Virus record (IMG/VR): IMGVR_UViG_2579778956_000004
Location: 1 to 23,861 of that record
Source: a virus
Taxonomy: Duplodnaviria > Heunggongvirae > Uroviricota > Caudoviricetes
DNA: 23,861 nt
Strand: one strand, 5' to 3'
Positions 5,179 to 23,861 of this stretch are shown one piece after another. The position numbers and the translations under genes are program-made. Under the pieces are notes generated by a model, which worked only from the letters and a program-made list of their open reading frames with translations, searched no databases and was not told where the DNA came from. Every line of letters starts with the position of its first letter. The stretch's first letter is position 1.

Positions 5179-5994
5179 ATGAGCAGACATGCAACAGATT
5201 GGGCCTGGGAGACAGATCCAGGTAGCTCGTCATTAAAGCTCATACTGCTCTCGATGGCTGACAGAGCCGATGAATATAACCTCTGCTACCCCAGCATAGA
5301 ACGCCTCGTTAAAGACACTTGCCTGAATAAAAAAACCGTGCAGGCCGGACTTATATCGCTCATGAAAATGGGGCTTATTTCAGATACCGGGGAGAGAAAG
5401 GGAGCGACAAAAAGAGTGCGGGTTTTCTCTCTTAATATAACCAAAAACGGGAACATTAAAGGCAACCGAGAGGGGGGCAATGAACCCGAAAACGGTAATG
5501 TTACCGAAAACGGGAATATACCCAAAAACGGGATGTTGAATGATCCCAAAAACGGGATGTTGAATGATCCCAAAAACGGGATCCAGAACCAGTCATATAA
5601 CCAGTCATTTAACCAAGAGAGGGAGAGCAGGACAAAAAACGGGGATTCTGTGCATCATGACCCCGGCGCAAACAACGCCGTGATGAATAACTTTGTTCCT
5701 CCTGGTGGGTCAGGGCAATTAGGCAAATTTGTCATGCATGAACAATGGCAGCCATCAGATGACTTTCTTCGGAAAAGCTCATTGCAGGGGATCTACCTGG
5801 ACAGTCTGCCAACGGCACAGGAACTTGCAGAGTTCAGAATTTACTGGATGGCTGAGGGTAAGGCATACCATCAGGCACAGTGGGAGCAGAAGCTGGCAAG
5901 GCGGCTGCAGATTAGCAGACAGAAGCAATCAACATTACCTGATAACAACGTTCCGCACTGGAACAGCCCTGAAGCATGGGAGGATTTCTTGTGA
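5179..5994 (+). CDS. Replication initiator, lambda-O-like (N-terminal HTH, repeat-encoded linker, C-terminal domain)
   Basis: SD GGAG before the ATG at 5179. N-terminal LKLILLSMADRADEYNLCYPSIERLVKDTCLNKKTVQAGLISLMKMGLI is HTH-like. The central region is encoded by the iteron repeats. The stop overlaps the next gene start (GTGA at 5991-5994). Confidence 0.7.
   Translation: MSRHATDWAWETDPGSSSLKLILLSMADRADEYNLCYPSIERLVKDTCLNKKTVQAGLISLMKMGLISDTGERKGATKRVRVFSLNITKNGNIKGNREGGNEPENGNVTENGNIPKNGMLNDPKNGMLNDPKNGIQNQSYNQSFNQERESRTKNGDSVHHDPGANNAVMNNFVPPGGSGQLGKFVMHEQWQPSDDFLRKSSLQGIYLDSLPTAQELAEFRIYWMAEGKAYHQAQWEQKLARRLQISRQKQSTLPDNNVPHWNSPEAWEDFL
5441..5645 (+). repeat. Iteron-like direct repeats inside the initiator gene (candidate origin of replication)
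   Basis: Seven copies of an AAAACGG(G/T)A core at about 5443, 5489, 5506, 5524, 5548, 5572 and 5634, including two perfect tandem 24-bp units CCCAAAAACGGGATGTTGAATGAT (5521-5544, 5545-5568). Followed by AACCAGTCAT x2 (5587-5608) in an AT-richer stretch. Confidence 0.6.
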
Positions 5995-8974: not shown

Positions 8975-9549
8975 TGTGCGATCCGGTTATTGCTGGTGGC
9001 GCAATGCTCGCCATGAGTGGCATTCAGGCATACACCCAGTACCAACAGGGAAAGTATGCCTCGAAGGTTGCAGAAGCGAACGCAGATATAGCCACAGCTC
9101 AGGCAAATGATGCAATAAACAGAGGTAACGCTGAAGCTGAGCAACGGCGCAGAGAGACCCGACAGCGGCTTGGTACACAGGCAGCGACAATGGGGGCTAC
9201 CGGCGCTGATTTATCTACAGGTAACGCGCTGGATATATTTGGTGACACTGCTCAGTTTGGCGCTCTTGATTCGCTAACGACGGTGAATAACGCGCAACGC
9301 GAGGCTTACGGTTATCAGGTTCAGGCTGCCAACTATAAAGCAGAAGCCAGTTCAGCCCGTAAACAGGGGAATGTGGGAGCAGCAACAACTTTACTCACTG
9401 CGCCTCTGAAGGCATACGGTGCGTACCAGATGTTTGGTGGGACGTGGAGTCCGTTCTCTAAAGGAAGTACATCTAGTGGTGGGACGCCAATGTTATCTAA
9501 CTCAGGTTTTATGAATTCTGACTCCCGATTCAAAATAGGAGGTTACTGA
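8974..9549 (+). CDS. Internal virion protein, T7 gp14-like
   Basis: 191 aa, begins MCDPVIAGGAMLAMSGIQAYTQYQQGKYASKVAEANADIATAQ. Ala/Gln-rich with an N-terminal Met-Cys, similar in size and composition to T7 gp14 as recalled. Start overlaps upstream stop (TAATG); SD GGAGAG. Confidence 0.5.
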   Translation: MCDPVIAGGAMLAMSGIQAYTQYQQGKYASKVAEANADIATAQANDAINRGNAEAEQRRRETRQRLGTQAATMGATGADLSTGNALDIFGDTAQFGALDSLTTVNNAQREAYGYQVQAANYKAEASSARKQGNVGAATTLLTAPLKAYGAYQMFGGTWSPFSKGSTSSGGTPMLSNSGFMNSDSRFKIGGY

Positions 9550-12062
9550 TGCCTGTTGTTCCTACTACATCCGGACGCCAGGTTGAGAGCCGTGGAGTTC
9601 AGTCAGCAGGCTTGCAGACGTTTTCTCAGCCAGGTATTGGTGATGCTTTTGTTCGGGCAGGGACAGAGGCAATTGATGTTTTGGGGCAGGCAAAACAGCG
9701 TGCCAATATCGCTCTGGCTCAGGAGGCATCTCTTAACCTCAGTCAGATAAGCAGTGATCTGCTGAATAACCCTGAAACAGGTTTGCTTAACCTGAAAGGG
9801 AAAAATGCTATTGGAAAAGGCCATGAGTATACGCAGCAGTTTGATGCTCAGGTCGAACAACTGGCTATGTCGCTGCCGGATGAACAGGCTCGTAATGCTT
9901 TCATGCAGCAGGCGCAGCAGCAGCGCATTCAGTTCACTACGCAGGCCGGGCGGCACGAGATAGGGCAAATTAATGCCTACGAAGAAGGTCAGTTTCAGGC
10001 GACGCTGCTGAACAATGGTAAAAATGCCGCAGCATTGTATGGCGACAATGCCGCATACGTATTGGCTAATAAGCAAACTTTCCAGCAAATTGAGGAGTAC
10101 GGTGCTGCACATGGCTGGAGCGACGAGCAAATACAGGCCAAGAAAATCGAGTTTAAAGAGAAGGTTGCTGATGCAGCATTGTCCCAGTGGTCGGCAAACA
10201 ATGCGACCGCATTCATCCAAAGTAATGGCGAGTTAAGTGATACTGCTGCTGGAGCTCGCCGTGCTGTAACAGATAGTGGCTCTTCCGAGCGTGTCCGTGG
10301 CATACGCAACAATAACCCCGGAAATCTCGAATATAGCAAAACTAATCCGTGGGTAGGCCAGACCGGTGATGATGGTAGATTTGCTAAATTCGAAACACCT
10401 GAACACGGGATTCGTGCATTAGGGCGGAACCTGATGTCGTATCAGCGGCAGGGTATTGATACCGTCAGCGAGATAATTAATCGCTGGGCACCGCCTACTG
10501 ATAAAAATGACACTATGTCGTATATCAAAGCAGTGTGCGAACAACTTGGCGTTTCTGCTGATGAGCCTCTCGATGCATCAAATCCTGATACCCTGAAGGC
10601 GCTTTGTGCAGCCATTATCCATCATGAGAACGGTAGCCAGCCATACAGTGATCAGCAGTTAACTGCTGGTGTCAGTGCAGCACTTGGTTTATCAACAATT
10701 CCAACCAACACCAAACGCTATACCGGTAATGCAGCATTCGATGCGGCATCTCCTGAGGCTCAGGCAAGTTTTATGCGGCAGGCGGATCAACTGCGTCGGC
10801 AGCAGCAGGCTGAATATAAAACGATGATTGACAGCCAGGTTCGCGATGCGACGGCTGCGTATATGCGTGGCGTTGAATTTCCTAACCCACCTGGTGAGGC
10901 TGATTTTATTGCAGCTTATGGAGTCAGAGAAGGAAACCTGCGATATACCGAGTTTAAGAATACGCAGATCGCCGGACAGTATATAGGCTCTTTCCGCAAC
11001 ATGCCGACAAGCAGCATTACAGCATATGTTGAGCAATTACGCCCGGATACTGGTGAAACAGGGGAGGGGTATGCGGCACGCGCAGCTCTTTATGACAACG
11101 TTGTTTCGGCTGCAAATCAGGTGATAAAGCAGCGGCAGTCGGATCCTGTGCAGTTCTCTCTTGCCTCCGGACAGACAAAGCCTATCGACATGAGCAATAA
11201 GGATAACTTTGGACAGAGCGTTGCCTTGCGTGCCGCTCAGGTCAGTGACCTTGCTAAGTCATATGGCACTCCACTGACGTTCTTTTCCAAAGACGAGGCC
11301 AATCAGATCGGTGTTTTCTTTCGTGATGCTCCAGTTTCCCAACAGGCAGCATATCTCGATACCATCAGGCAGAGCACTGGTGGTGGGCAGGTGTATATGT
11401 CAGCACTACAGCAGATCAGTGCCAACGCTCCATCTGCTGCCGTTGCCGGGATACTGATGGATAAGCCAGGTGGTATTTTGGCAGAAAAAAACTGGTTTAA
11501 TCCGGATGTTTCCGTGTCTCCTGAAACCGCTGCGCAGACAATTCTTGCTGGCGCGGCGGCTCGTAAAGGTACTGATGACGCGAAAGGTATTCCGATGCCT
11601 AAAGATGCTGATCTCCGCCTTGAGTTTTCTGACATGGTGAAGGATGCATTTGCTGGTGATGCTCAGGGGGCATCAATGGCATACGAGATCGCAAAGGACT
11701 ATTACGCTGGTGTGATGGCGAAAAAAGGCGTGGTATCAGGCGAAATTGACAATGATATCTGGAAACAGGCTGTTAACGTAGCTACAGGTGGCGTGCATGA
11801 CTATAACGGAATGGGGAATGTTCTTTTGCCGTGGGGAATGTCTGCAGAGCAATTCGATAAGCAGGTTAATCAGGCTTGGAATGAACAAGTTGTTGGCACA
11901 GGGATAAAAACACCGCCTGGTCAGTATGGTTTGCAAAGTTACGGCGATAGTCAGTACCTGGTGAAACTTGGTACTGGTTATCTGCTAAAAGATGATGGTT
12001 CTCCCGTTGTTCTTGATCTGACACAGAAGCGTCAGAGATTCTCCGGAGATATTCCGCAATGA
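9549..12062 (+). CDS. Large internal virion / ejection protein (T7 gp15/gp16-like) with a possible cell-wall-hydrolase-like segment
   Basis: 837 aa; SD AGGAGG; start overlaps upstream stop (TGATG). Residues ~250-350 contain RGIRNNNPGNLEYSKTNPWVGQTGDDGRFAKFETPEHGIRALGRNLMSY, which looks like a conserved enzymatic module, but I cannot assign the family without a search. Confidence 0.6.
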   Translation: MPVVPTTSGRQVESRGVQSAGLQTFSQPGIGDAFVRAGTEAIDVLGQAKQRANIALAQEASLNLSQISSDLLNNPETGLLNLKGKNAIGKGHEYTQQFDAQVEQLAMSLPDEQARNAFMQQAQQQRIQFTTQAGRHEIGQINAYEEGQFQATLLNNGKNAAALYGDNAAYVLANKQTFQQIEEYGAAHGWSDEQIQAKKIEFKEKVADAALSQWSANNATAFIQSNGELSDTAAGARRAVTDSGSSERVRGIRNNNPGNLEYSKTNPWVGQTGDDGRFAKFETPEHGIRALGRNLMSYQRQGIDTVSEIINRWAPPTDKNDTMSYIKAVCEQLGVSADEPLDASNPDTLKALCAAIIHHENGSQPYSDQQLTAGVSAALGLSTIPTNTKRYTGNAAFDAASPEAQASFMRQADQLRRQQQAEYKTMIDSQVRDATAAYMRGVEFPNPPGEADFIAAYGVREGNLRYTEFKNTQIAGQYIGSFRNMPTSSITAYVEQLRPDTGETGEGYAARAALYDNVVSAANQVIKQRQSDPVQFSLASGQTKPIDMSNKDNFGQSVALRAAQVSDLAKSYGTPLTFFSKDEANQIGVFFRDAPVSQQAAYLDTIRQSTGGGQVYMSALQQISANAPSAAVAGILMDKPGGILAEKNWFNPDVSVSPETAAQTILAGAAARKGTDDAKGIPMPKDADLRLEFSDMVKDAFAGDAQGASMAYEIAKDYYAGVMAKKGVVSGEIDNDIWKQAVNVATGGVHDYNGMGNVLLPWGMSAEQFDKQVNQAWNEQVVGTGIKTPPGQYGLQSYGDSQYLVKLGTGYLLKDDGSPVVLDLTQKRQRFSGDIPQ

Positions 12063-13861
12063 GTTACTTTGGCCTTAATCCAGTAAACCAGAATCAGCAG
12101 CTTGACGAAGCAGCATCAAATCCAGCTGGCTTTAACAGCGATGTTGGTTTTTTCGACAATGCTGTAGGAGCGGCATTGTCTGGTTTGTACTCCGGGCTGG
12201 TGGCAAAGCCAGATCAGTTGCTCTGGGCAGGGATGGATAAAATCGTATCCCCGATTGCTCAGTTTGTTAACGAAAACACCTCGCTCAATGACACTTCAGT
12301 TTCATACGTTGCCGAGCAGAGAAAACTAGCAGAGCAGCAGGTTAAGCGGCTGACGCCTGATGCCGCGACAACCGGAACCGCCGGGCAGGTTCTTTATGGG
12401 TTGTTCGATATGGGCGGGCAGGCTGTTGTCGGTACAACGCTCGGTGGTCCTGTCGGAGGTGCAGCGGCGGTAACTTCGCTACAGGGTTTTTCTGAGTTTG
12501 AACGGCTGACAGCACAGGGTGTTGATTTCAGGACGGCGCAGGAAGCGGGATTAGTGCAGGGCATTACTGCTGGTGCCGGAACACTGATCCCTATGAGCCT
12601 CGGGTTACGTGCTGGTGGTGCGCTGGCGGAAGGTGTGGCGGCTCAGCTTGCGCGGACGGGTGAGAGTTCAGTGCGACGCGCCGCAGCAACAGCAGTACGT
12701 GCAACGCCAGATATTGCCTATGCCGCAGGTACAAATATTGCGTTCGGTATGGCACAGCGTGGGCTTACTGCAAAAACACTTCGTGATGGTGGCTATAGCG
12801 AAATGGCTAACCAGTATGATGTGTTGGATCGACAGGCAATTGCTATTGATGCTGTTCTTGGGGTGGCGTTTGGTGGTGTCGGCAGATTTATTAACTCTCG
12901 CGGCGAGTCTACAAACGCACCAAATTTTTCACCAGTTGATATCGATGCTGCACTGGCGGCGAATGCCGCTCATCATGCTGAAATTGATATTGCGCCCGGC
13001 GTGCCGATCAACGTGCTTTCGCGCAATTCTCACATTCAGGCTCTGCGAAAAGCTATGTCTGATGTTAGCCAGGGGAGACCTGTAGACGTTGCCAGCATTG
13101 TTGAGTCTGCATCTTTCAGTGAAATTCCTGGGCGCAAGAGTCTGCTGTCTCAGGCAGTTAATGAGGCTCTGTCATCTGTAGATGATGGAGTAACGGCGCG
13201 CGCTATAGAAAATCGGTTGCTTGAAGAACAGGCCGCGCAGCTTTTGCCGCGTGGAGATAGACAGGTTTACCAGTCTGAAATCGCTAATAGCCAACGAATT
13301 ATTGAAAATCTCACTGAACAGCGTGCACAAATTCTTGCAGAAGAGCCAACCGGTAGCGGTAAAGCTTTGTCTCGTGCTCGATCAGATAAACAGGCCAGAC
13401 TTCGCGATATTGATCAACGAATCCGGCAGGCACAAGAACGCCTGGAATTTTCCCGTAACGCGTTGGCACCGCACGAGCCTGGCGGTCAGTTTTTTGAAGC
13501 TCGAGCAGAACTGGCTCGGAGACAGCAGGCAGAAAGTGAACTTAATGCTCAGGCTGTTTCATTCTATAAAACAGCAGAGGTCAGGACGCCAGACGAAGTA
13601 GCTCCTTTTGAGCCTGATAAAATATTGCAACAGGCAGAACAAAAAATGATGTCAGATCCGGCAGGAGATATTGATCTGCGCATAGCTGAAGACTCGCTGC
13701 TTGAATCACCTGACATGATAATCACCGTGCTGGATGATGATGGTAATCCACAATCGCGCAGTGCGCGTGAAGTACTGGATGAAGCGAACAGGGAAAGTGA
13801 GCAGGCAATACAGGATTCCAGCCTGTTTGATGTTGCTGTGGCGTGTTTCTTGAGAGGTTAA
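12059..13861 (+). CDS. Large internal virion / ejection protein (Gly/Ala-rich)
   Basis: 600 aa; start overlaps upstream stop (ATGA). The N-terminal half is Gly/Ala-rich and hydrophobic (GTTLGGPVGGAAAVTSLQG...), the C-terminal half charged and coiled-coil-like. Consistent with a core/ejection protein. Confidence 0.55.
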   Translation: MSYFGLNPVNQNQQLDEAASNPAGFNSDVGFFDNAVGAALSGLYSGLVAKPDQLLWAGMDKIVSPIAQFVNENTSLNDTSVSYVAEQRKLAEQQVKRLTPDAATTGTAGQVLYGLFDMGGQAVVGTTLGGPVGGAAAVTSLQGFSEFERLTAQGVDFRTAQEAGLVQGITAGAGTLIPMSLGLRAGGALAEGVAAQLARTGESSVRRAAATAVRATPDIAYAAGTNIAFGMAQRGLTAKTLRDGGYSEMANQYDVLDRQAIAIDAVLGVAFGGVGRFINSRGESTNAPNFSPVDIDAALAANAAHHAEIDIAPGVPINVLSRNSHIQALRKAMSDVSQGRPVDVASIVESASFSEIPGRKSLLSQAVNEALSSVDDGVTARAIENRLLEEQAAQLLPRGDRQVYQSEIANSQRIIENLTEQRAQILAEEPTGSGKALSRARSDKQARLRDIDQRIRQAQERLEFSRNALAPHEPGGQFFEARAELARRQQAESELNAQAVSFYKTAEVRTPDEVAPFEPDKILQQAEQKMMSDPAGDIDLRIAEDSLLESPDMIITVLDDDGNPQSRSAREVLDEANRESEQAIQDSSLFDVAVACFLRG

Positions 13862-13866
13862 ATTAA

Positions 13867-16341
13867 ATGAGACAGGAATGTATACAAGCGGTCCAGCAGG
13901 CGGCGCAGCGCACGTTAACGGAGCGAGAAATACAGAACATTGAAGACCGCATTTATCGAAATATGCGCTCCATTGCTCGTGATGACCCGATGTCGTGGAG
14001 ACAACTTTCCGAATCAGAGCGGCTATATCGAGCAGCACAATTGGCATCTGAAGAATTACAGCGAGAAGCGGCATTAAAGAAACGTCGTGTGGCCCTCACT
14101 ATAGCCGCACGTCAGAGATTGGATAAATTTATCAATAGCTATCAAGGGGCTGATGGGAAACTTGGCGCTCTTAACCGTACTATTGCTTTTAATGCAGACG
14201 GTAAATCGAATTTCCTCTCTGTTGAGTCCAGAACAAAAGCCACTCGTGATTATGCATTGAGTCAATTGCAGGAGGCATTTGAAGCAGTTGATCCTCGCTT
14301 TTTTGGCCTGTTTGAAGATGAAGCTGGCGTACGTGACCTGGTATATGAAATGCGAGGGCAAAATACTGGCAATGCTAAAGCAAGAAAAGGTGCTAAGGCG
14401 TGGAGAGAAGTGACAGATCTACTGCGCCGCCGGTTTAATGATGCTGGTGGGGACATTGGCTATCTCGAAAACTGGGGGATCCCTCAACATCATTCTATGG
14501 AAAAGGTTGGGGCGGTATCAAAGGATAAGTGGGTTAGCGATGTTATAGGTAAGCTGGATCGCAAATATTATATCCGAGCCGATGGACAACTGATGAACGA
14601 TGCCGAGTTGTCTGCATTTCTTGGAGAGGCTTATAACACGATCGCTACAGGTGGGCTGAATAAGCTTACTGATACCGGAATGCGAATTTCCGGCGCACGT
14701 GCTAACCGTGGTAATGCATCACGACAGATACATTTCAAAGATGCAGATTCCTATCTGCAATATCAGCAACTTTATGGCGATCGCTCTCTATGGGAAATCA
14801 TGGTCGGTCACCTTGAAGGTATCAGTAAAGATATTGCACTGGTGGAAACATATGGCCCAAACCCCGATCATGTTTTCCGCTCTCTTCTTGATCAGGTGAA
14901 GGCAGAAACGGCAACAGCTAACCCGAGTAAAACCGGTAAAGTCGAGCGGCTGGCGAACAACACAGAGAATCTGTACAACTTTATTTCCGGAAAGACACAG
15001 CCTGTAGCGAATCCGCACATCGCGCGATGGTCTGACAATATCCGCAACTGGTTGGTTGCCAGCAGACTCGGATCCGCGTTGCTGTCATCGTTCTCTGACC
15101 TTGGAACCATGTATCTGTCTGCGAAGGTTACCAACCTTCCAATGAACCAGTTATTCCGCAACCAGCTTGAAGCTATGGACCCAACGAACCGTACAGAACT
15201 TGCGCGGGCGCGCCGCGCTGGTCTGGCGATGGAATCTCTACTTGGCAGCGTTAACCGCTGGGCGATGGATAATATGGGGCCGTCTGTGTCTCGTTGGGCT
15301 GCAACGGCGGTAATGCGTGCCAGTGGGCTTACAGCATGGTCAGATGCGCACAAGCGCGCCTATGGCGTAACCATGATGGGAAGCCTGGGAGAAGTAGTGT
15401 CACGGACACCAGACCTTCGTAGCCTCGATGATTCTGATTTTCGTATCCTGAAAAGCAAAGGGATTACTGACACAGACTGGAGCGTATGGAAGCTGGCGCA
15501 ACAGGAGGACTGGGGGAACGGCAATAATACGATGCTGACACCGGAAAGCATTATGCGTATCCCTGATTCAGCAGTTAAACATCTTGGTGAGCCTGAACGC
15601 GTGAAATTTGAGGCAACGCGCAAACTGCTCGGTGCCGTAACTGAAGAAGTTGATATGGCTGTTATTACACCGGGAGCACGTGAGCAACTGATAACCGGTT
15701 CTGGTATTCAGCGTGGAACATGGAAAGGTGAATTAACGAGAAGTGTTTTCCTGTTTAAATCGTTCCCTATCTCGGTGGTTATGCGTCACTGGTCACGCGC
15801 TATGGGTATGCCGTCTGCTGGTGGGCGTGCGGCATATATTGCGACGTTTATTGCCAGTACGACCATTCTTGGCGCTTTGTCGCAGCAACTTAACGACCTT
15901 GCGTCTGGTCGTAATCCTCGCGAGATGACAGGAGAAGATGCTGCTAAATTTTGGCTTGGTGCTCTACTGAAAGGTGGTGGTCTTGGCCTTTACGGTGACT
16001 TTTTATTGTCAGATCACACTAGGTACGGAAGCGGCGCGCTGGCGTCGATGCTTGGCCCGGTAGCTGGTCTGGTTGATGACGTAGTGAAGATTGCTCAGGG
16101 CATACCGTTAAATGCTGTGGAAGGGAAGAGTGAGCAGACTGGTGGTGATCTGGTTAAGCTTGGGAAGGGGCTGATGCCAGGTGCAAATCTCTGGTACTTG
16201 AAGGCGGCTCTCGATCACATGATTTTTAACCAGATGCAGGAGTATTTTTCACCAGGCTATTTGCGTAAAATGGAGCAACGTTCGAAGAAAGAGTTTAACC
16301 AGACATACTGGTGGCGACCTCAGGATGTCACTCCGCAATAA
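13867..16341 (+). CDS. Large internal virion / ejection protein
   Basis: 824 aa; SD GAGAGG precedes the ATG at 13867. Last gene of the tightly coupled structural series. No specific motif recognised. Confidence 0.55.
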   Translation: MRQECIQAVQQAAQRTLTEREIQNIEDRIYRNMRSIARDDPMSWRQLSESERLYRAAQLASEELQREAALKKRRVALTIAARQRLDKFINSYQGADGKLGALNRTIAFNADGKSNFLSVESRTKATRDYALSQLQEAFEAVDPRFFGLFEDEAGVRDLVYEMRGQNTGNAKARKGAKAWREVTDLLRRRFNDAGGDIGYLENWGIPQHHSMEKVGAVSKDKWVSDVIGKLDRKYYIRADGQLMNDAELSAFLGEAYNTIATGGLNKLTDTGMRISGARANRGNASRQIHFKDADSYLQYQQLYGDRSLWEIMVGHLEGISKDIALVETYGPNPDHVFRSLLDQVKAETATANPSKTGKVERLANNTENLYNFISGKTQPVANPHIARWSDNIRNWLVASRLGSALLSSFSDLGTMYLSAKVTNLPMNQLFRNQLEAMDPTNRTELARARRAGLAMESLLGSVNRWAMDNMGPSVSRWAATAVMRASGLTAWSDAHKRAYGVTMMGSLGEVVSRTPDLRSLDDSDFRILKSKGITDTDWSVWKLAQQEDWGNGNNTMLTPESIMRIPDSAVKHLGEPERVKFEATRKLLGAVTEEVDMAVITPGAREQLITGSGIQRGTWKGELTRSVFLFKSFPISVVMRHWSRAMGMPSAGGRAAYIATFIASTTILGALSQQLNDLASGRNPREMTGEDAAKFWLGALLKGGGLGLYGDFLLSDHTRYGSGALASMLGPVAGLVDDVVKIAQGIPLNAVEGKSEQTGGDLVKLGKGLMPGANLWYLKAALDHMIFNQMQEYFSPGYLRKMEQRSKKEFNQTYWWRPQDVTPQ

Positions 16342-16350
16342 GGAAGTGTT

Positions 16351-16524
16351 GTGTTTTTAATTATTTTGAGTGTGATAATTTCTGTTGGGTTGTTATTTAT
16401 TGACCGCTACAAATATTTTCTTAACCCTCAGACTCAAGCTATTTGCTGGTTCATCTTTGTTGTGCAGGGAGTAGTTCTTGTTGCAAGCCTTATTGAGGGG
16501 AGGCCTCTTATTTTTACTGGGTAA
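16351..16524 (+). CDS. Small hydrophobic protein (57 aa), putative membrane protein
   Basis: Not in the ORF track. GTG 16351 with AGGAAG 4 nt upstream. Product VFLIILSVIISVGLLFIDRYKYFLNPQTQAICWFIFVVQGVVLVASLIEGRPLIFTG has two predicted hydrophobic helices. Confidence 0.3.
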   Translation: MFLIILSVIISVGLLFIDRYKYFLNPQTQAICWFIFVVQGVVLVASLIEGRPLIFTG

Positions 16525-16536
16525 ATAGGTGACTAC

Positions 16537-16833
16537 ATGCAAGCTATAGGATTCATTGTTTATATCGTCGTTGGTCTTTTTCAGTTGGCAGCAATTATGG
16601 CTGGGCTTGAATCATGGTGGGGATTGCACTGGATAATTGCAGCCCCCATTGCTTTCATCGTGAGCTATATTCCATTTGTTGGAGCGATTGTTGGTATGGT
16701 TGGCGCTGTGGATGTATGGCGGTGGGAGTGGTGGCAGGCTGGCCTTCTCTTCTTTGGTGGGATCATCTTTGCTATTGTCTGCGGTGGAATGTCATCATTT
16801 TTCGAATGGCTATCATTCAGAAAAGGGACGTGA
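16537..16833 (+). CDS. Small integral membrane protein (98 aa)
   Basis: Three hydrophobic segments (IGFIVYIVVGLFQLAAIMAGL; WIIAAPIAFIVSYIPFVGAIVGMVGAV; GLLFFGGIIFAIVCGG) with Trp-rich loops. Followed by a terminator. Confidence 0.5.
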   Translation: MQAIGFIVYIVVGLFQLAAIMAGLESWWGLHWIIAAPIAFIVSYIPFVGAIVGMVGAVDVWRWEWWQAGLLFFGGIIFAIVCGGMSSFFEWLSFRKGT

Positions 16834-16842
16834 CATGTCACA

Positions 16843-16866
16843 GGCCGCTTTCGCGGCCTTTTCTTT
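16843..16866 (+). terminator. Rho-independent terminator after the small membrane genes
   Basis: GGCCGC-TTTC-GCGGCC stem-loop followed by TTTTCTTT. It overlaps the stop codon of the convergent minus-strand gene. Confidence 0.5.
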
Positions 16867-17122
16867 ATGTGGTTTGTTTTCGTAATTGTTCGGCACAATA
16901 GTCTAGATGTGTTTGCAGATCCTGCATAGACATCTGTGAGCTGGTGACGTAGTTAATCAGTGCAGTCAGTTCGGCAAGTGGGCCATCGACATTAAATCCA
17001 TCTTTATCGAGATCCCGGAGTAATTTCATCAAGTGCGATCCATCCACCAGTGACCTGACGCCTCCCGGCGTGTGAATCCTTTCGGTAAATCCGTCTTCCA
17101 GTGGATAGTGATACTGCTGCAT
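16865..17122 (-). CDS. Small SOS-regulated protein (85 aa), candidate antirepressor
   Basis: Start assigned to ATG at 17122 (MQQYHYPLEDGFTERIHTPGGVRSLVDGSHLMKLLRDLDKDGF...) with GGAG 8 nt upstream. The longer 126-aa ORF in the track would read through the LexA box and operator. A near-consensus LexA box sits about 20 nt upstream of this ATG. Confidence 0.55.
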   Translation of the reverse strand: MQQYHYPLEDGFTERIHTPGGVRSLVDGSHLMKLLRDLDKDGFNVDGPLAELTALINYVTSSQMSMQDLQTHLDYCAEQLRKQTT

Positions 17123-17317: not shown

Positions 17318-19480
17318 ATGACGGTCTCAACCGAAGTTGACCACAACGAATACACAGGTAACGGCGTTACGACATCGTTTCCGTATACTTTTCGAATTTT
17401 CAGAAAATCAGACCTGGTTGTTCAGGTGTCTGACCTGAACGGGAACATCACAGAGCTGATTCTTGATACTGATTATACAGTTACGGGTGCTGGTGGGTAT
17501 TCTGGTGGCAATGTAATACTGATGTCGGCACTTGCAAACGGATACCAAATTTCCATTTCGCGTGAGTTGCCGGTGACGCAGGAAACCGATCTCCGTAATC
17601 AGGGTAAGTTCTTCGCAGAAGTGCATGAGGATGCTTTTGATAAACTGACTATGCTGATTCAGCAGGTACGCAGCTGGTTAAGTCTGGCCCTCAGAAAGCC
17701 TTCGTTCGTGGCTAACTATTATGATGCTCTTAATAACTACATCAGAAACCTGCGAGATCCTTCACGCCCGCAGGATGCGGCAACTAAAAATTATGTTGAT
17801 AGCGTTGCAGATACAAACCTCAACAAAACACTAAGAACACCGGAAGCTATTCAATCTCTTCCTGATGCGATTTCCAGGGCAAACAAAATTGTTGCTTTTG
17901 ATAGCGCTGGTCAGCCATTTGCAACACTACCCCCATCAGGTAGCGCCACCGATGTGTTAATTGAGCTGGCAAAGCCTACTGGAGCGGGATTATCAGGGTT
18001 CGATAAGTCAGTTGATTACGCCGGTGGTACGGTTGGTAGTGAGCTAAAAAATGTTATATTCGTCAATCCTGATATGTATTCAACATTGCAGGAGGCGATT
18101 GATTATGCAGCATCTTTAACAGGGCTGGAACATTCTCCAAGTAGTGCAGCTGGGCATCCAGACTGGATACAACCAAATACTGTATGCAAAGTTGTCAGAT
18201 TAAATGGAAAGAAATACCCCATAAACACAACATTACATGTTTACGGTGATGTAAGCATAGATGCAGAATTTGGAGGGGTATATCTCACGGATGACTTCAT
18301 AGCAGATTCTTCTGGGTATGCTGTTAAATGCGATAAAGGAACAGGTAATCAATACGCTGGGCACATTAGCAATCTTTTAATTGACGCCCGCGCAAAGACT
18401 GTTAATGGATTTAAAATATCTGATGGTTATGCCAACAAGTTAGATGGCATTTACGTAGCCAACGTTGATGGTCATGGCATTCATATTGCTGGAGGCATGG
18501 GTGTGCACCTCATGAAATTCTATGCTATCAGCGTATTAAAACCTACGAATCCACTTAGTCAGGCACACATCATAGAAGGAAGCGATCACCATATTAGTAT
18601 GGGTGAAGGCAGATATTTCAGATTCGGAACGTGGGTTAGGAATGGTGGAAATAACAGGCTTAATAACGTACATAACTGGGGAATGTATGACGATACAGTG
18701 GCCGACCAAAACTCAAGAATGAAATGTTGCTTTGTTGTACAAAATTCTATAAACAACTCATTTAATCAATGTTTTGCAGATTCACCATCAAAATGGGATT
18801 ACACAAAAACAAATTTAGCTCCTGTTGATGGTTATATTAATGGTGGGATTGGTTTCTTCGTTGATAGTGGCGCTACCGGGAATATATTCTCTCAGTGTCA
18901 AACGTTCGTTAACATGAATGCTTATAATTCTGCCGGTCTCTCAAGTTATACTGCGGCGTTATATCCATTTCTTGTAGGTAGTGCGAATTGTGGATTTTCT
19001 TTATGTGAAAACTCAAACAGCCCAGCATGGGTTGGTAAATGTATAAATCATGTTTCTGGGGTGGCTCAAGAGTTCACAAATGCTGTGGGGACAAAAAATT
19101 TCGTTGGCATAGAAGACGACATGCATGCTAACAGGACTTTTTTCAGAAAAGGAGTTGGTGTTCCAATTATCTCGTATGTTATTAAAACAGAAACAGCAGG
19201 AAGCACTTATGTTGCTGATTTTTCATTGTCTTCTTATATTTCAATAACATGCAACTCTAACATTAGTATATCCGTTGCGACACTCAGTAACCCGCCAATA
19301 GGATATACTGAATGTACACTTTCAGTGTTTTCCGCATCATCAAAACTGATCACCTTTACAGGATCTGTTACGCTTGCGAAAAATACACCATCACTAAATG
19401 AATCCGGAACTCAGGTGTTCCGGATGTCAACTGCTGATGGCGGGGCTACTTGGTATGCGAGACTTGTAGCGAACTATTAA
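17318..19480 (+). CDS. Tailspike / tail fiber with T7-gp17-like N-terminal anchor domain and a distinct C-terminal receptor-binding region
   Basis: 720 aa; SD GGAG. N-terminus EYTGNGVTTSFPYTFRIFRKSDLVVQVSDLNGNITELILDTDYTV follows the conserved pattern of the T7 gp17 N-terminal domain shared by podovirus tailspikes. The C-terminal two-thirds are visibly more AT-rich and Asn/Gly/Ser-rich, consistent with a beta-helical receptor-binding domain. Confidence 0.8.
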   Translation: MTVSTEVDHNEYTGNGVTTSFPYTFRIFRKSDLVVQVSDLNGNITELILDTDYTVTGAGGYSGGNVILMSALANGYQISISRELPVTQETDLRNQGKFFAEVHEDAFDKLTMLIQQVRSWLSLALRKPSFVANYYDALNNYIRNLRDPSRPQDAATKNYVDSVADTNLNKTLRTPEAIQSLPDAISRANKIVAFDSAGQPFATLPPSGSATDVLIELAKPTGAGLSGFDKSVDYAGGTVGSELKNVIFVNPDMYSTLQEAIDYAASLTGLEHSPSSAAGHPDWIQPNTVCKVVRLNGKKYPINTTLHVYGDVSIDAEFGGVYLTDDFIADSSGYAVKCDKGTGNQYAGHISNLLIDARAKTVNGFKISDGYANKLDGIYVANVDGHGIHIAGGMGVHLMKFYAISVLKPTNPLSQAHIIEGSDHHISMGEGRYFRFGTWVRNGGNNRLNNVHNWGMYDDTVADQNSRMKCCFVVQNSINNSFNQCFADSPSKWDYTKTNLAPVDGYINGGIGFFVDSGATGNIFSQCQTFVNMNAYNSAGLSSYTAALYPFLVGSANCGFSLCENSNSPAWVGKCINHVSGVAQEFTNAVGTKNFVGIEDDMHANRTFFRKGVGVPIISYVIKTETAGSTYVADFSLSSYISITCNSNISISVATLSNPPIGYTECTLSVFSASSKLITFTGSVTLAKNTPSLNESGTQVFRMSTADGGATWYARLVANY

Positions 19481-20594
19481 CTTTTGAGTTGAATCTCAAC
19501 TCAATGTTTTTATAGGTTATTAGTGATATTATCACAGTAATCATAAATGTAATTATTGACATAATGAAGTAGGAAAGGATTCCTATTTCATATAGGTTAA
19601 ACCCAATTATTTTAAATACGTATAAAGATAGATATATAATAGCTTGGTGGCTAAGGTATATGCTATAGCTAATCATACCAATCAATACTATGTTGCTGGA
19701 TTGAAGAAACTTAGGCTTAATGTAGCAAATGCTGGAGAATAATATTGTTACTAAAATAAATCTATAAATCCCGTATCCGTCATCTTTTTGATAAATGCAG
19801 GTGAGCAATGTTAATATTGCTGTAATTGATATAATCAACTTCCAAGATTTTTTATCATGGTTTAGTGAATTATCGTAAACAACTTTACCAACCGCACCAC
19901 TAATGAAAAATAAAAACATATCTGTATTTAAATTAGACTTTTCTATAGTATAAATACCAATAATAAACAGTGTTATGGAAATATATTTTTCATTTTTATA
20001 AAAAAGAGATATAGCTACAATTGATATATAGAAAATCCATTCATACGGCAGAGTCCATGATACCACGCCAATACTGTGTATCCATGAGTCTTTGAAGAAA
20101 ATTCCACCGCCAAGAAACCCAAACGCTAATAGCTGAATAAGTGCTTTTCTGTAATCATCAAGACTAGCTCCATCAGACATAAATATTATAAACACTGCCA
20201 TGTTTATCAATGCAAAAAATAAAAACGCAGGTGCTAGTCGTTTTATTCTCTTCATCATAAAATCATCCGCGCTTTTTACATTTTTTATTCTTGATAAAAA
20301 AAGGAACCCGGTAATTGCGAAAAATATCTCCACCCCTAATGAGCCAAAATTATCATATATCGGCATTATTTTATATGGAATGTTTTGGTTTGTTATCCCT
20401 ATCGTAGGTAAGTAGTAAGCAAAATGATTGAAAAAAACCATAATACATGCCACACCCCTAAGACCTTCAAGCCACAAAATATTGTTTTGTGAATTGTTTA
20501 CTATCCCTGATTTCACAGGAATAAGAAATACAAAAAAAATAAAAATTAAGAATGCAATAAGCTGATATACGCTAAAATCATAGAAAAAACTCAT
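19446..20594 (-). CDS. Acyltransferase-3 family membrane protein, O-antigen acetyltransferase-like (lysogenic conversion candidate)
   Basis: 382-aa polytopic membrane protein with LWLEGLRGVACIMVFFNHFAY near the N-terminus, typical of Oac/OafA-type acyltransferases. Strongly AT-rich relative to flanks. SD AGGA precedes the ATG at 20594. The 3' end overlaps the tailspike 3' end by 35 nt. Confidence 0.8.
   Translation of the reverse strand: MSFFYDFSVYQLIAFLIFIFFVFLIPVKSGIVNNSQNNILWLEGLRGVACIMVFFNHFAYYLPTIGITNQNIPYKIMPIYDNFGSLGVEIFFAITGFLFLSRIKNVKSADDFMMKRIKRLAPAFLFFALINMAVFIIFMSDGASLDDYRKALIQLLAFGFLGGGIFFKDSWIHSIGVVSWTLPYEWIFYISIVAISLFYKNEKYISITLFIIGIYTIEKSNLNTDMFLFFISGAVGKVVYDNSLNHDKKSWKLIISITAILTLLTCIYQKDDGYGIYRFILVTILFSSICYIKPKFLQSSNIVLIGMISYSIYLSHQAIIYLSLYVFKIIGFNLYEIGILSYFIMSIITFMITVIISLITYKNIELRFNSKVNSSLQVSHTK
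19484..19511 (+). terminator. Putative rho-independent terminator after the tailspike gene
   Basis: TTGAGTTGA-ATC-TCAACTCAA hairpin (9-bp stem) followed by TGTTTTT, starting 4 nt after the tailspike stop. It lies inside the 3' end of the convergent acyltransferase ORF. Confidence 0.45.
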
Positions 20595-20772: not shown

Positions 20773-21186
20773 GTGGTCACTATGTCAGCCCAGCTAACCA
20801 GTGAGTCTTTAAATCAGTGGCTTAGTATGGGTTCTCTGGCTGCGGTAATCGCAGGTGTCCCTCCCGAGGTGGCTCTTGGTGCTTTATCCGGGGCGGTAAT
20901 ATTTATTACCTCTGCCGTTGAGTATCCAATACGCCGCCGGGTTCTCCTGTCGATGCTCAGCTTTCTCTGTGGGCTTCTCTTCTACAAACCAACTGCATCA
21001 ATTCTTATCGGCGTAGCCAGCCTGATCCCAACTATCACGCAGGATTCATTCGAGAAAGGGATCGTCTTCTCTGCTGGCGCGTTCGTGTCGGCAATCGTCG
21101 CAGTACGTATTGGTATCTGGCTCTATCACCGTTCGGACAATCCACGCGATTTAATCCCGGGGAGAAAAGACGATGACAACTCATGA
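20773..21186 (+). CDS. Putative holin
   Basis: 137-aa product with hydrophobic segments (LAAVIAGVPPEVALGALSGAVIFITSAV; ILIGVASLIPTI; IVFSAGAFVSAIVAVRIGIWLY) and a charged C-terminus, placed first in the lysis cassette. GTG 20773 and ATG 20782 are alternative starts. Confidence 0.5.
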   Translation: MVTMSAQLTSESLNQWLSMGSLAAVIAGVPPEVALGALSGAVIFITSAVEYPIRRRVLLSMLSFLCGLLFYKPTASILIGVASLIPTITQDSFEKGIVFSAGAFVSAIVAVRIGIWLYHRSDNPRDLIPGRKDDDNS

Positions 21187-21481
21187 GCTGCTTTTATTGA
21201 TAGCCAATGCGGTTATCTGTTCTGCGATAGCAATCCGCGTCGGAACCTTCCGGAGAAATGGATCGCAACACCGAAGGTTGGGAGGCTGGCTTGCTTATTT
21301 CCTGATTGTTGCTGCAGCTAGTATTCCTGTTCGTGTCGTCTATGCAATCTGGTTACGTACGCCAATGGCTGTGGATTTATCTGAGGTCATTATCAATGCT
21401 GTCATGCTTGCCGCGGTTATTAAAACACGCGGTAACGTTGTTCAGATTTTCAAAATATCGAGGTCTAAACATGGAGATTAA
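21173..21481 (+). CDS. Second small membrane protein of the lysis cassette (holin/antiholin-like)
   Basis: 102 aa with three hydrophobic segments and a basic C-terminus. Overlaps the previous gene by 14 nt and the endolysin start by 11 nt. Confidence 0.5.
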
Positions 21482-22100
21482 ACAATTCCAGCGAGCTGCT
21501 GGTATTAGCGAGGCGCTGGCCGCACGCTGGTTCTCGCATATAACTTCTGCGATGAAAGAGTTTGGTATCAGCAAACCAGAAGATCTGGCAATGTTTATTG
21601 CTCAGGTCGGGCATGAGTCTGGAGGCTTCACCCGGTTGCAGGAAAATTTCAACTACAGCGTCAGCGGACTGGCTAATTTCGTTCGGGCTGGGCGTCTCAC
21701 TCAGGGACAGGCCAACGCATTGGGGCGTCGTGCTGGTGAACCACCATTGCCACTTGAGCGCCAGAGAGCGATCGCCAATCTGGTGTACAGCAAACGCATG
21801 GGTAACAATGCCCCAGGCGATGGATGGAATTACCGTGGGCGCGGACTTATCCAGATTACCGGTTTGAATAACTATCGTGACTGCGGAAACGGCCTGAAAG
21901 TGGACCTGCTGGAGAGTCCTGAACTGCTGGCGCAGGACGAATACGCGGCTCGTAGCGCGGCGTGGTTTTTTGCCAGCAAAGGCTGCATGAAGTATACCGG
22001 CGATATTGCACGTGTAACTCTGATTATCAATGGTGGCCGGAACGGCATTGATGACCGGCGCGCGCGATACATCACTGCCAGTAAGGTGCTGGCGGTATGA
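21471..22100 (+). CDS. Endolysin, glycoside hydrolase family 19 (chitinase-like)
   Basis: Start taken at ATG 21471 ([11 protein letters not shown]...); the upstream extension in the ORF track overlaps the holin-like gene. Contains [10 protein letters not shown] and [16 protein letters not shown], characteristic of GH19-type phage endolysins. Confidence 0.85.
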
Positions 22101-22594
22101 TCTGGGCATTCGTAAAAGCATACTGGAAACAGTTGCTTATCGTGGCGGTGCTTGCTGTTCTGGTCATATCAGGAGTTGTTGCCTGGAATGTACACGGTAG
22201 CCGTCAGTACGACGCCGGGTATGCGCAGGCACAGGAAGATCAGAAGCAGGCTGATGATAAGGCCAGGTCACAACGTGATCAGGAGAAAACACAAATTGAA
22301 CGTGAAGCACAATCCCGTATCGATGTGGCGCGTGTTGATGCTGAGCATGCTAATGCCGCTGCTGACAGCCTGCGCGCCGAGCTTGACAAAACCAAGCGAC
22401 TCGCCGAACACTATACCGGATCTTTCCCCACTGGCACGCCAGCCAGCAAGGTCATCGGTGTGCTCGCCGACATGCTTGAAGAAAGCAATCGAGTTTACAA
22501 CGCAACAGCAGCTGAGGCTGAAAAGTATCGGATTGCAGGAGAATCCTGCGAACAGCAATACGATTCACTGAGGAAGCAAAAATCGTGGCACTGA
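22097..22594 (+). CDS. Inner-membrane spanin (Rz-like)
   Basis: ATG overlaps the endolysin stop (ATGA). N-terminal transmembrane helix [18 protein letters not shown] followed by a charged coiled-coil-like periplasmic domain. Confidence 0.7.
22323..22571 (+). CDS. Outer-membrane lipoprotein spanin (Rz1-like), embedded in the Rz-like gene in another frame
   Basis: [41 protein letters not shown]... has a signal peptide with an LLTAC lipobox and a Pro-rich mature part, nested wholly within 22097-22594. Start is uncertain (ATG at 22323, 22338, 22347 or 22353). Confidence 0.5.
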   Translation: MWRVLMLSMLMPLLTACAPSLTKPSDSPNTIPDLSPLARQPARSSVCSPTCLKKAIEFTTQQQLRLKSIGLQENPANSNTIH

Positions 22595-22790: not shown

Positions 22791-23330
22791 TTAATTAAAC
22801 CAGCTGTCCGATTTGTTCTCTTCTGCTTTGCCCACGCTTTTCATCAGATCGCGACCGCCTTCAGTCATATTTCTGTTGGCGTCAGCTTCAGATTGCACCA
22901 CATCGGTTTGCGCAGCTTTGTGCTTCAGTTCCTGATCGATAAATTCGTTTTCTCGCTTAACGCGGGCTTCTTCTTTTGCCAGCGCCAGTTTTTGTTTCTG
23001 AATCTCTAAGCTGCGTAGCTCATCTTCATAACTTTGATCGCGTTTTTTGTCCGCAGAGGCTTCGGCGTCCAGTTTATCCTGACGAGCTTTCTTATTTGCC
23101 GCTGCCGTTGCCGCTCTTTTGTTAGCGGCGGCCTGGGCATTTGCGCGACGTTGCTTCTCTTGCTGGATTTCCCTGTTGCGCTCCGCGACCCATTCGTCAT
23201 GCTGCCTTTGCTCTTCATTTTTACCTTGCTGTTCAGCTTCTGCTACAGCAGAGAGTTGATCCTGCAATGATGAGGCGATAGCCGGATAGCTTAAGGAGGC
23301 CAAGATGGCGCAAAGAAAAACTTTCTTCAT
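22791..23330 (-). CDS. Secreted coiled-coil protein (179 aa), function unknown
   Basis: N-terminal signal peptide MKKVFLCAILASLSYPAIASS, then a Lys/Glu/Gln/Ala-rich sequence with heptad-like character. Strong SD AGGAGGAG before the ATG at 23330. Second gene of a two-gene operon. Confidence 0.6.
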   Translation of the reverse strand: MKKVFLCAILASLSYPAIASSLQDQLSAVAEAEQQGKNEEQRQHDEWVAERNREIQQEKQRRANAQAAANKRAATAAANKKARQDKLDAEASADKKRDQSYEDELRSLEIQKQKLALAKEEARVKRENEFIDQELKHKAAQTDVVQSEADANRNMTEGGRDLMKSVGKAEENKSDSWFN

Positions 23331-23345
23331 GACTCCTCCTGATTA

Positions 23346-23861
23346 TTAGCTCTTTTCAGGACATTTAGTATTTGGCTGAATACGCGTTTCGTTATACGTT
23401 GTGGTAATAACAACGGCTAAACCTGTCGTAAACTGGCACTCTTTACCCACCTGGGTAGAGGTATACACTTTGGTGCCTTCCTTATATGTTAAAGAAACAC
23501 CTTCCACTAAGGTTTTATCATTCACCATAGAACCCACTGCCGCGCCTACAGCTCCGCCGCCAACTGCCCCTGCCGTCGTTCCGGAATTGCTGCCAGAACC
23601 GACGTTGTGGCCGATAACACCGCCAGCGACTGCGCCAATAAGCGCGCCGAAGGCTTGTGCGTTCCGTTTATTTTGGGAGTTGTCTACGGCAACTTTTGCG
23701 GGAAGAATGGAAATAATATTAACGGTTTTAGTTTCTTGTTTGGTATTCAGTTGATCGGTTTGATAAACATCGGCGGCATGATCGTCAGCATTTGACTGGC
23801 ATCCTGCCAGAGTGAATGACGCTAACATTGCCACAGGCAGAAGACATTTTTTAAATTTCAT
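23346..23861 (-). CDS. SlyB/Pcp-like outer-membrane lipoprotein (glycine-zipper family)
   Basis: 171 aa; lipoprotein signal MKFKKCLLPVAMLASFTLAGC (lipobox LAGC); a Gly-rich zipper region GALIGAVAGGVIGHNVGSGSNSGTTAGAVGGGAVGAAVG; overall architecture like SlyB. ATG is at the last bases of the window. Confidence 0.65.
   Translation of the reverse strand: MKFKKCLLPVAMLASFTLAGCQSNADDHAADVYQTDQLNTKQETKTVNIISILPAKVAVDNSQNKRNAQAFGALIGAVAGGVIGHNVGSGSNSGTTAGAVGGGAVGAAVGSMVNDKTLVEGVSLTYKEGTKVYTSTQVGKECQFTTGLAVVITTTYNETRIQPNTKCPEKS

Follow-up and report, generated by a model that had tools for sequence, protein, structure and literature searches.

Two small membrane protein genes behind the last ejection gene of an epsilon15-like prophage: a mobile accessory gene, its variable upstream slot and a possible role in entry exclusion

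What might two small membrane proteins do for a temperate podovirus when their genes stand between its ejection genes and its tailspike? We address this question for a DNA stretch of 23,861 nucleotides (nt), positions 1 to 23,861 of the IMG/VR virus record IMGVR_UViG_2579778956_000004 (hereafter the window), whose prophage is of the epsilon15-like type (genus Uetakevirus; epsilon15/phiV10-like) from Escherichia coli. The genes in question are two adjacent open reading frames (ORFs) on the plus strand, namely ORF-A, of 57 amino acids (aa) with a GTG start (16351-16524), and ORF-B, of 98 aa with an ATG start (16537-16833). An earlier reading made from the letters alone (the sequence-only reading) had called both ORFs at the positions at which we find them, and had likened their place to that of the superinfection-exclusion gene sieA in phage P22. 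Our comparisons show ORF-B as a mobile accessory gene preceded by a variable slot, which ORF-A fills in the window, and interference with the entry of phage DNA is the function that we tentatively favor for the pair.

The pair directly follows a gene for a protein of 824 aa (13867-16341, plus strand; phrog_684, virion structural protein, expect value (E)=0), which is the equivalent of epsilon15 gp17 and the last of three large internal virion protein genes (9549-12062, 12059-13861 and 13867-16341). Epsilon15 gp17 has been described as a homologue of T7 gp16, or IVP-D (for internal virion protein D) (PMC4819975), and 13867-16341 is therefore reasonably termed the last ejection gene, as the sequence-only reading had done. 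The C-terminal 299 aa of this protein are 98.7% identical to their phiV10 counterpart, and the 1.1 kb around ORF-A and ORF-B show 96-99% identity to the phages YDC107_2, HEMP4, phiv142-3, PAS61, and phiV10.

The question of function presupposes that both ORFs are translated, which is less obvious for ORF-A. It could be a mere open frame in the T-rich spacer between gp17 and ORF-B, given its non-ATG start, its narrow distribution, the lack of any PHROG match or of any Pfam match above threshold, its omission by the Prokaryotic Genome Annotation Pipeline (PGAP) in an E. coli chromosome 100% identical to the window, and its missing annotation in phages phiv142-3 and BUCT711. A 57-aa hypothetical protein that corresponds to ORF-A is annotated by NCBI in some records of E. 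coli, Citrobacter, and Enterobacter. Against an untranslated frame stands the comparison of about 100 related loci gathered from IMG/VR, GenBank phages, and genome assemblies. The frame is exactly 57 codons long in 68 of 69 related loci, with one frameshift-ridden record and one C-terminal frameshift as the exceptions to its integrity, while its two other forward frames hold 3-5 stops. Between the E. coli and Klebsiella types, 15-17 synonymous changes stand against 16-19 non-synonymous ones (17 against 16 in one comparison), with a ratio of non-synonymous to synonymous substitution rates (dN/dS) of 0.20-0.28. The first codon is GTG or TTG only, and it stands behind a Shine-Dalgarno sequence (AGGAAG, 16341-16346, plus strand) that shares one base, the last of TAA, with the gp17 stop codon (16339-16341). 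This element, TAAGGA/TAAGGGG, is kept between the E. coli and Klebsiella types, in contrast to the spacer, which varies. Furthermore, a weakly similar 54-aa ORF with two predicted transmembrane (TM) segments occupies the same place in one relative (L074:5800-5964; 29% identity, pairwise E 3e-7). Because of the intact frames under purifying selection, the conserved Shine-Dalgarno sequence with its GTG/TTG toggle, and the confident helical models described below, we have little doubt that ORF-A and ORF-B are genuine genes, and consider an untranslated ORF-A highly improbable. With a gap of only 9 nt between the gp17 stop and its start, ORF-A appears translationally coupled to gp17.

Both products are predicted membrane proteins, as had been proposed. 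ORF-A has a grand average of hydropathy (GRAVY) of 1.39 and two hydrophobic segments, and AlphaFold2 models it as a helical hairpin (helices 2-20 and 26-49) with a predicted local distance difference test score (pLDDT) of 75.6. ORF-B, with a GRAVY of 1.24 and three hydrophobic segments, receives a confident, all-helical model (helices 2-28, 32-44, 46-60, and 65-97; pLDDT 89.7). The description of the two proteins as Trp-rich holds for ORF-B, which has 8 Trp residues (8.2%), and fails for ORF-A, which has one. ORF-B matches the unnamed family phrog_3075 over its full length (residues 1-98 of 98, E 1.6e-54), and its dN/dS of 0.01-0.04 was obtained at a dS of about 1.3-2.3, where synonymous sites are near saturation.

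ORF-B is no fixed part of the genome in which it is found. Phages phiV10, SPN1S, and 65FD lack it, their gp17 C-termini being 95-99% identical to that of the window and their flanks otherwise matching. Conversely, copies of ORF-B that are 94-100% identical to that of the window adjoin gp17 types only about 26% identical. In an alignment of twelve contexts, homology begins only about 17 nt before the ORF-B start codon (AATAAATAGGTGACTACATG) and ends past the terminator; a GC-rich hairpin lies 3' of ORF-B in every aligned context, with stem sequences that differ. The Shine-Dalgarno sequence of ORF-B (AGGTG, 16527-16531, plus strand, 5 nt before the ATG) is part of the shared stretch of about 17 nt (AATAAATAGGTGACTAC). 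The alignments thus show the apparent mobile unit to be a cassette of ribosome-binding site, ORF-B, and terminator, with no detectable promoter. Taken together, the absence from close relatives, the near-identical copies beside divergent gp17 types, and the limits of homology at the cassette edges show ORF-B, at the level of sequence comparison, to be a dispensable and horizontally mobile accessory gene in a large membrane protein family that is mostly borne by mobile elements.

This pattern bears on one way in which the position of the pair could be explained, namely that the proteins serve the virion itself, either as membrane factors that the large internal virion proteins need in order to be handled, folded, or packaged, or as an ejected virion component. 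The conserved synteny and the translational coupling with an IVP-D homologue across divergent podophages would fit such a helper. However, phiV10, SPN1S, and 65FD form virions without ORF-B, near-identical copies lie beside gp17 types of such low identity, and members of the family are found far from any virion gene. A polytopic membrane protein would, moreover, be an unlikely cargo for a membrane-less capsid. We regard a role in morphogenesis or ejection as very unlikely.

The interval between gp17 and ORF-B is hypervariable, holding either a small envelope-targeted protein or no gene at all. ORF-A fills it in 64 of 80 IMG/VR loci. Besides the 54-aa relative of ORF-A already mentioned, we found a 103-aa protein with two TM segments (phrog_21905), a 112-aa protein with two TM segments, signal-peptide proteins of 102 and 123 aa, and secreted proteins of 175 and 176 aa, encoded at L059:5685-5996, L082:5684-5992, L061:5621-5992, L092:5461-5988, L093:5658-5996, and L095:5453-5983 of the respective relatives. 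Two of the occupants match PHROG families, neither with an assigned function (phrog_21905 and, weakly, phrog_19289). The slot is empty in prophages of Cronobacter and Salmonella, and in those of Cronobacter the ORF-B homologue begins 1 nt past a gp17-like stop. ORF-A and ORF-B occur together in 70 of 71 loci with ORF-A, and the single exception stops at a contig edge. The compared loci thus show ORF-A as one of about six apparently interchangeable small envelope proteins before ORF-B, always in its company.

A second cargo hot spot is present in relatives between ORF-B and the gp19-like gene downstream, and is empty in the window. It holds a HicA/DUF1902 toxin-antitoxin pair in Cronobacter (L005:5362-5820), DUF4760 with several unknown ORFs in Serratia (L095:6381-8469), and DUF2335 with a small secreted protein in Klebsiella phage BUCT711 (L003:5340-6129).

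To what kind of family does ORF-B belong? We collected 52 close homologues, and homologues down to 48% identity occur in Klebsiella, Cronobacter, Dickeya, Kosakonia, Yersinia, Serratia, Salmonella, and Aeromonas. Among 1.84 billion representative proteins, a profile search returned 747 clusters (at 50% identity) at E<=1e-3, and 320 at E<=1e-10. The family reaches Microvirga and Thermoflexus (Alphaproteobacteria and Chloroflexota), whose members came from a scan of genome contigs that used a narrow pattern and returned 6 loci. No Pfam, NCBIfam, or PADLOC model matches the family above threshold, a Pfam scan of 28 members gave no recurrent family, and a profile search of the sequences in the PDB gave no match. 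The domain is also found fused to DUF805, RDD, MORN repeats, and zinc ribbons (P0158, P0261, P0136, P0070, P0074, P0077, and P0060), with four tandem copies in P0060. Within the phage collection, the carriers of ORF-B are temperate phages or prophages only. Among complete E. coli genomes, 205 of 5426 (about 4%) carry the ORF-A/ORF-B pair, including O26, O103, and other Shiga-toxin-producing lineages.

In Enterobacterales, ORF-B is repeatedly placed right behind the last ejection gene, in at least four distinct podophage lineages. Outside this position, its relatives are found in an Aeromonas islet between trpA and hipBA, at an integrase-proximal prophage end with a 185-nt intergenic region to a divergently oriented gene, in an island with GmrSD, TerB/DnaJ, and Rap1a (L101), and at a site adjoining acnB. 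Further relatives are carried by an integrase- and Zot-bearing element with a McrB-like gene, by a transposase-rich region, and by a Microvirga element that encodes a serine recombinase. Three unrelated contexts outside phages have a gene for a DUF6804 (PF20619) membrane protein directly after the ORF-B homologue, either overlapping it or within 4-17 nt (L101:6001-6587, L104:6001-6600, and L110:6001-6646). This suggests a conserved two-gene membrane module; we found no mention of DUF6804 in the literature.

Such contexts invite the view that the proteins benefit the host or the element in ways other than at phage entry, as prophage cargo that provides immunity to toxins that target membranes, such as bacteriocins, type VI secretion system (T6SS) effectors, or contact-dependent growth inhibition effectors, tolerance of envelope stress, or a regulator or anchor of membrane proteins. 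The width of the family, its recurrent DUF6804 partner, and its fusions, which are of a kind expected for a generic membrane module, agree with this view, as do the very strong purifying selection on ORF-B, the hipBA genes adjoining in Aeromonas, and the gene for Rap1a (T6SS immunity) about 520 nt upstream in L101. Phage phiv142-3, which has both genes, raises the serum survival of its host, though via other ORFs (PMC7724020). On the other hand, random cargo would not be placed so regularly behind the last ejection gene in Enterobacterales, and no curated immunity family is matched. A benefit of this kind is possible, and we consider it improbable as the function of the pair. A profile such as that of ORF-B, which is dispensable, mobile, and near defense or toxin-antitoxin genes, is what is expected either of an exclusion gene or of a host-benefit gene.

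The next question concerns the time at which the pair would be expressed. Downstream of ORF-B lies an intrinsic terminator (16842-16869, plus strand; AGGCCGC-TTTC-GCGGCCT and a T-run), whose hairpin (16842-16859) has 7 bp, 6 of them GC, followed by TTTCTTT; it marks the end of the rightward operon and had been recognized in the sequence-only reading. A second candidate, a hairpin with TTTTT within the 3' end of ORF-A (16494-16510), was rejected as an internal terminator between the ORFs. It is weak, with two G-T pairs, and is probably non-functional, since substitutions destroy it in the Klebsiella-type ORF-A. A scan of the window for sigma-70 consensus promoters, which an atypical promoter could escape, stayed at chance level and detected none for either ORF, and promoter-like sites occurred at chance frequency in the 500 nt 5' of ORF-B in 18 contexts. 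The single extended -10-like site (about 16370-16378) is not kept in the Klebsiella type. With the scans at chance level and only the ribosome-binding site common upstream, we rejected the idea of a classical moron with a promoter of its own. By these predicted signals, ORF-A and ORF-B are shown to be co-transcribed at the 3' end of the internal-virion-protein operon, and ORF-B to have a putative Shine-Dalgarno sequence of its own, followed by the operon terminator.

The two ORFs share one frame, separated by TAA and four codons. We also rejected a read-through fusion of the two, as the offset is 186 nt in 62 loci and 187 nt in 8, so that the frame relation is not conserved. Morons are also recognized by a base composition that departs from that of their neighbors (PMC3594210). 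The GC content is 0.40 across ORF-A, 0.43-0.50 in ORF-B, and about 0.50-0.52 in the 3' half of gp17, a difference for which hydrophobic coding alone could account.

Expression with the structural operon after induction would suit a late-lytic membrane function, either a holin-, antiholin-, or viroporin-like tuning of membrane energization and lysis timing or an exclusion confined to the lytic cycle. The pair shares its strand with gp15-17 and has neither an internal terminator nor a detectable promoter, the short gap after gp17 shrinks further in Cronobacter, and ORF-B resembles class I holins such as lambda S in its length of about 100 aa, its three hydrophobic segments, and its short basic C-terminus. 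The glycine-zipper motif described below, and the potassium- and sodium-channel pore domains that recur among the fold matches, none of them significant, point in the same direction, as does one weak match to Phage_holin_5_2 (E 0.027). That match, however, scores 15.2 bits against a Pfam cut-off of 29.2 and is found in 1 of 28 family members. A lysis cassette (20773-22594) about 4 kb from ORF-B already provides two genes of curated holin families (Phage_holin_8 and Phage_holin_3_7; 20773-21481) beside endolysin and Rz genes, and ORF-B, unlike a class I holin, lies away from the endolysin. In addition, close relatives do without ORF-B, and its family has members in non-phage islets, where lysis timing is meaningless. 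A late-lytic function is unlikely in our estimate, and the holin reading of ORF-B is disfavored.

The topology of ORF-B also differs from that of a class I holin, as far as it can be argued from the family. Topology prediction, which had been proposed as a check, gives the two-helix hairpin for ORF-A, and for ORF-B three hydropathy TM segments and a short basic C-tail. In 186 family members, this tail contains on average 2.5 Lys and Arg against 1.2 Asp and Glu residues, which consistently reads as cytoplasmic. At least nine members have N-terminal extensions of 48-347 aa with no predicted TM segment; those inspected have no signal peptide, and zinc ribbons and MORN repeats are among them. The N-terminus is therefore argued to be cytoplasmic as well, in conflict with a simple three-TM reading and with the N-out/C-in arrangement of class I holins. 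If both ends are inside, the central 29-residue segment must be a hairpin, and AlphaFold splits this segment into two short helices near the invariant Pro46. Both Trp-rich loops (ESWWGLHW and DVWRWEWWQ) would then be on the periplasmic side. ORF-B further has a conserved loop, VWxWEWWQA, a glycine-zipper-like motif, VGAIVGMVGA, and invariant small residues at G13, A19, G29, G49, G53, G56, A57, and A68; these residues and the motif are compatible with tight helix packing or oligomerization. Structure searches with the ORFs gave no informative fold match.

How do these genes compare with known exclusion systems? P22 SieA has 162-164 aa and three TM segments, resides in the inner membrane, and blocks DNA injection, and escape mutations map to the ejection proteins gp16 and gp20 (PMC10883804). 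The P22 gene order is 16, sieA, mnt/arc/ant, 9, and that of the window is gp17-like, ORF-A, ORF-B, gp19-like, tailspike. The proposed analogy holds in that the pair lies between the last ejection gene and the immI-like/tailspike region of a temperate podovirus and that ORF-B is accessory, being absent from some relatives. It does not extend to expression or descent. sieA lies on the opposite strand with an annotated promoter and is expressed from the prophage, whereas ORF-A and ORF-B are late-strand genes for which no promoter was detected. Against the three TM segments of SieA stand three hydrophobic segments in ORF-B, modeled by AlphaFold2 with three or four helices; the topology of ORF-B is ambiguous, and the protein is shorter. 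The cytoplasmic motif FxRYPxEAxxFNK of SieA types A-C (PMC10883804) is missing from both ORFs by inspection, and an hhalign comparison of the ORF-B family profile with P22 SieA gave a probability of 0.2%, so that homology was rejected.

In layout, the closest analogue is HK97 gp15, a small membrane gene on the late strand inside the virion-structural operon, with a terminator directly after it. Its product of 62 aa has one hydrophobic segment and blocks genome entry in a tail-dependent manner, and it has been described as an independent transcription unit among morons with their own promoters (PMC3594210). The spacer upstream of gp15 is 57 nt, against 9 nt after gp17 here, and HK97 is a siphovirus, so that the target of gp15 would be the tape measure or tail and not internal virion proteins. 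Homology to gp15 was likewise rejected, as hhalign gave ORF-B a probability of 0.1% and BLASTP produced no alignment of ORF-A. Of the features by which morons are recognized (PMC3594210), ORF-B shows extra DNA relative to its relatives and a terminator of its own, and lacks a promoter of its own.

In position and architecture, ORF-A resembles phiV10 gp21/SPN1S_0020 (phrog_7892), which also directly follows gp17 on the same strand, encodes a two-TM hairpin with a basic loop, and is followed by a terminator. Unlike ORF-A, it has 46 aa and occurs in phages that lack ORF-B, and the two have no detectable similarity (no BLASTP alignment of ORF-A with phiV10 gp21). The counterpart in epsilon15 is presumably gp18, and we found nothing in the literature on the function of epsilon15 gp18 or phiV10 gp21. 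Imm of phage T4, a protein of a virulent myovirus with early expression, can be likened to ORF-A and ORF-B by description only. According to a summary in PMC11436027, DNA injection is prevented at the inner membrane by Imm, a small membrane protein. By the sequence comparisons with SieA and HK97 gp15 and the PADLOC search, ORF-A and ORF-B lie outside the known exclusion families.

On this evidence, we favor interference with entry, similar to superinfection exclusion, at the cytoplasmic membrane as the function of the ORF-A/ORF-B pair, with a probability of roughly 0.3, the remaining weight falling on the rivals discussed above and on other explanations altogether. This reading rests on the slot analogy, the dispensability of ORF-B, its temperate-only carriage, the hypervariable partner slot, and the defense-type neighbors in islands. 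ORF-B would form a conserved, probably oligomeric membrane platform with Trp-rich loops at the periplasmic face, which ORF-A and the alternative slot proteins would modulate or direct. The pair might then hinder either assembly or functioning of the trans-envelope DNA conduit formed from incoming ejection proteins, in the way that SieA and HK97 gp15 do. At the same tentative level, it would act like SieA or gp15 without membership of either family.

Several observations weigh against entry exclusion. Neither ORF has a detectable promoter and only a ribosome-binding site travels with ORF-B, so that the promoter and upstream evidence leaves expression in a repressed lysogen unsupported. The sequence of ORF-B is conserved to an extraordinary degree (dN/dS of about 0.02), which is not the signature of an arms race, and similarity was found neither to SieA and HK97 gp15 nor to the models of PADLOC, Pfam, and NCBIfam. 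Furthermore, the presence of the domain in Alphaproteobacteria and Chloroflexota and its generic fusions suggest a membrane module of general use, not a blocker specific to phages.

A more specific version of entry exclusion, which we consider quite unlikely, would make the ORF-B family the constant platform of a modular two-part system whose specificity comes from a swappable upstream partner. The platform would consist of a TM helix, a re-entrant hairpin, and a second TM helix (N-in, C-in), with a glycine zipper and two periplasm-facing Trp belts. Its partners would be ORF-A and at least five alternatives, with DUF6804 proteins outside phages, and in phages the system would be parked behind epsilon15-like ejection genes.

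The surroundings of the pair complete the description of the locus. The neighbor downstream is a convergent gene that forms the operon boundary, the gp19-like gene (16865-17122, minus strand; 258 nt and 85 aa according to PGAP; phrog_450, E=4.5e-47 over residues 42-125). A mechanical ORF list extends it to 17245 (126 aa), and the 85-aa PGAP version is probably right. The sequence-only reading had called this an antirepressor locus, but a full antirepressor is missing, and the gene resembles antirepressors in the C-terminal part only (phrog_450; phrog_1760 at E 7e-7). The Bro-N antirepressor found here in phiV10, phiv142-3, and many relatives is not present in the window. Beyond it lie the tailspike gene (17318-19480, plus strand) and an acyltransferase-3 gene (19446-20594, minus strand), which converge with a 35-nt overlap. 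After the lysis cassette, two minus-strand genes (22791-23330 and 23346-23861) follow, of which one matches DUF5384 (E 7.5e-62). The lysis cassette of phiV10 is directly followed by the integrase, and these two genes are possibly further cargo or flanking host DNA.

Upstream in the window, an ORF of 844 aa (5976-8510) fuses two coding regions in frame, a P-like helicase loader (aa 7-219) and the C-terminal two-thirds of a tail protein (aa ~244-844). Its breakpoint lies at about 6695-6699, and in comparison with phiV10 and with the prophage of E. coli NZ_AP021890, which is otherwise identical, the window is short of about 12 kb. By the canonical Uetakevirus gene order, the missing part presumably held the late regulator, terminase, portal, and capsid genes. 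The window is therefore not a complete prophage map. The junction occurs in none of the 5426 complete E. coli genomes; either the prophage is defective through a deletion, or the junction is an artifact of assembly or splicing. If the junction is real, the early rightward operon would take in the ejection genes together with ORF-A and ORF-B.

Phages commonly encode small hypothetical membrane proteins, and without a phenotype ORF-A and ORF-B would simply be two more of them. What distinguishes them is how large the ORF-B family is, that it keeps a fixed position after the ejection genes in several podophage lineages, and that the partner slot is swappable. Independent of function, ORF-B provides a handle on a large, unnamed membrane protein family (at least 747 clusters) outside Pfam, and the variable slot before it is a natural library for the diversification of small envelope proteins. 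If the pair does block DNA entry, it would represent a third, sequence-unrelated inner-membrane solution to superinfection exclusion beside SieA and HK97 gp15, and would be relevant to phage therapy and phage-based detection that use Uetakeviruses such as phiV10.

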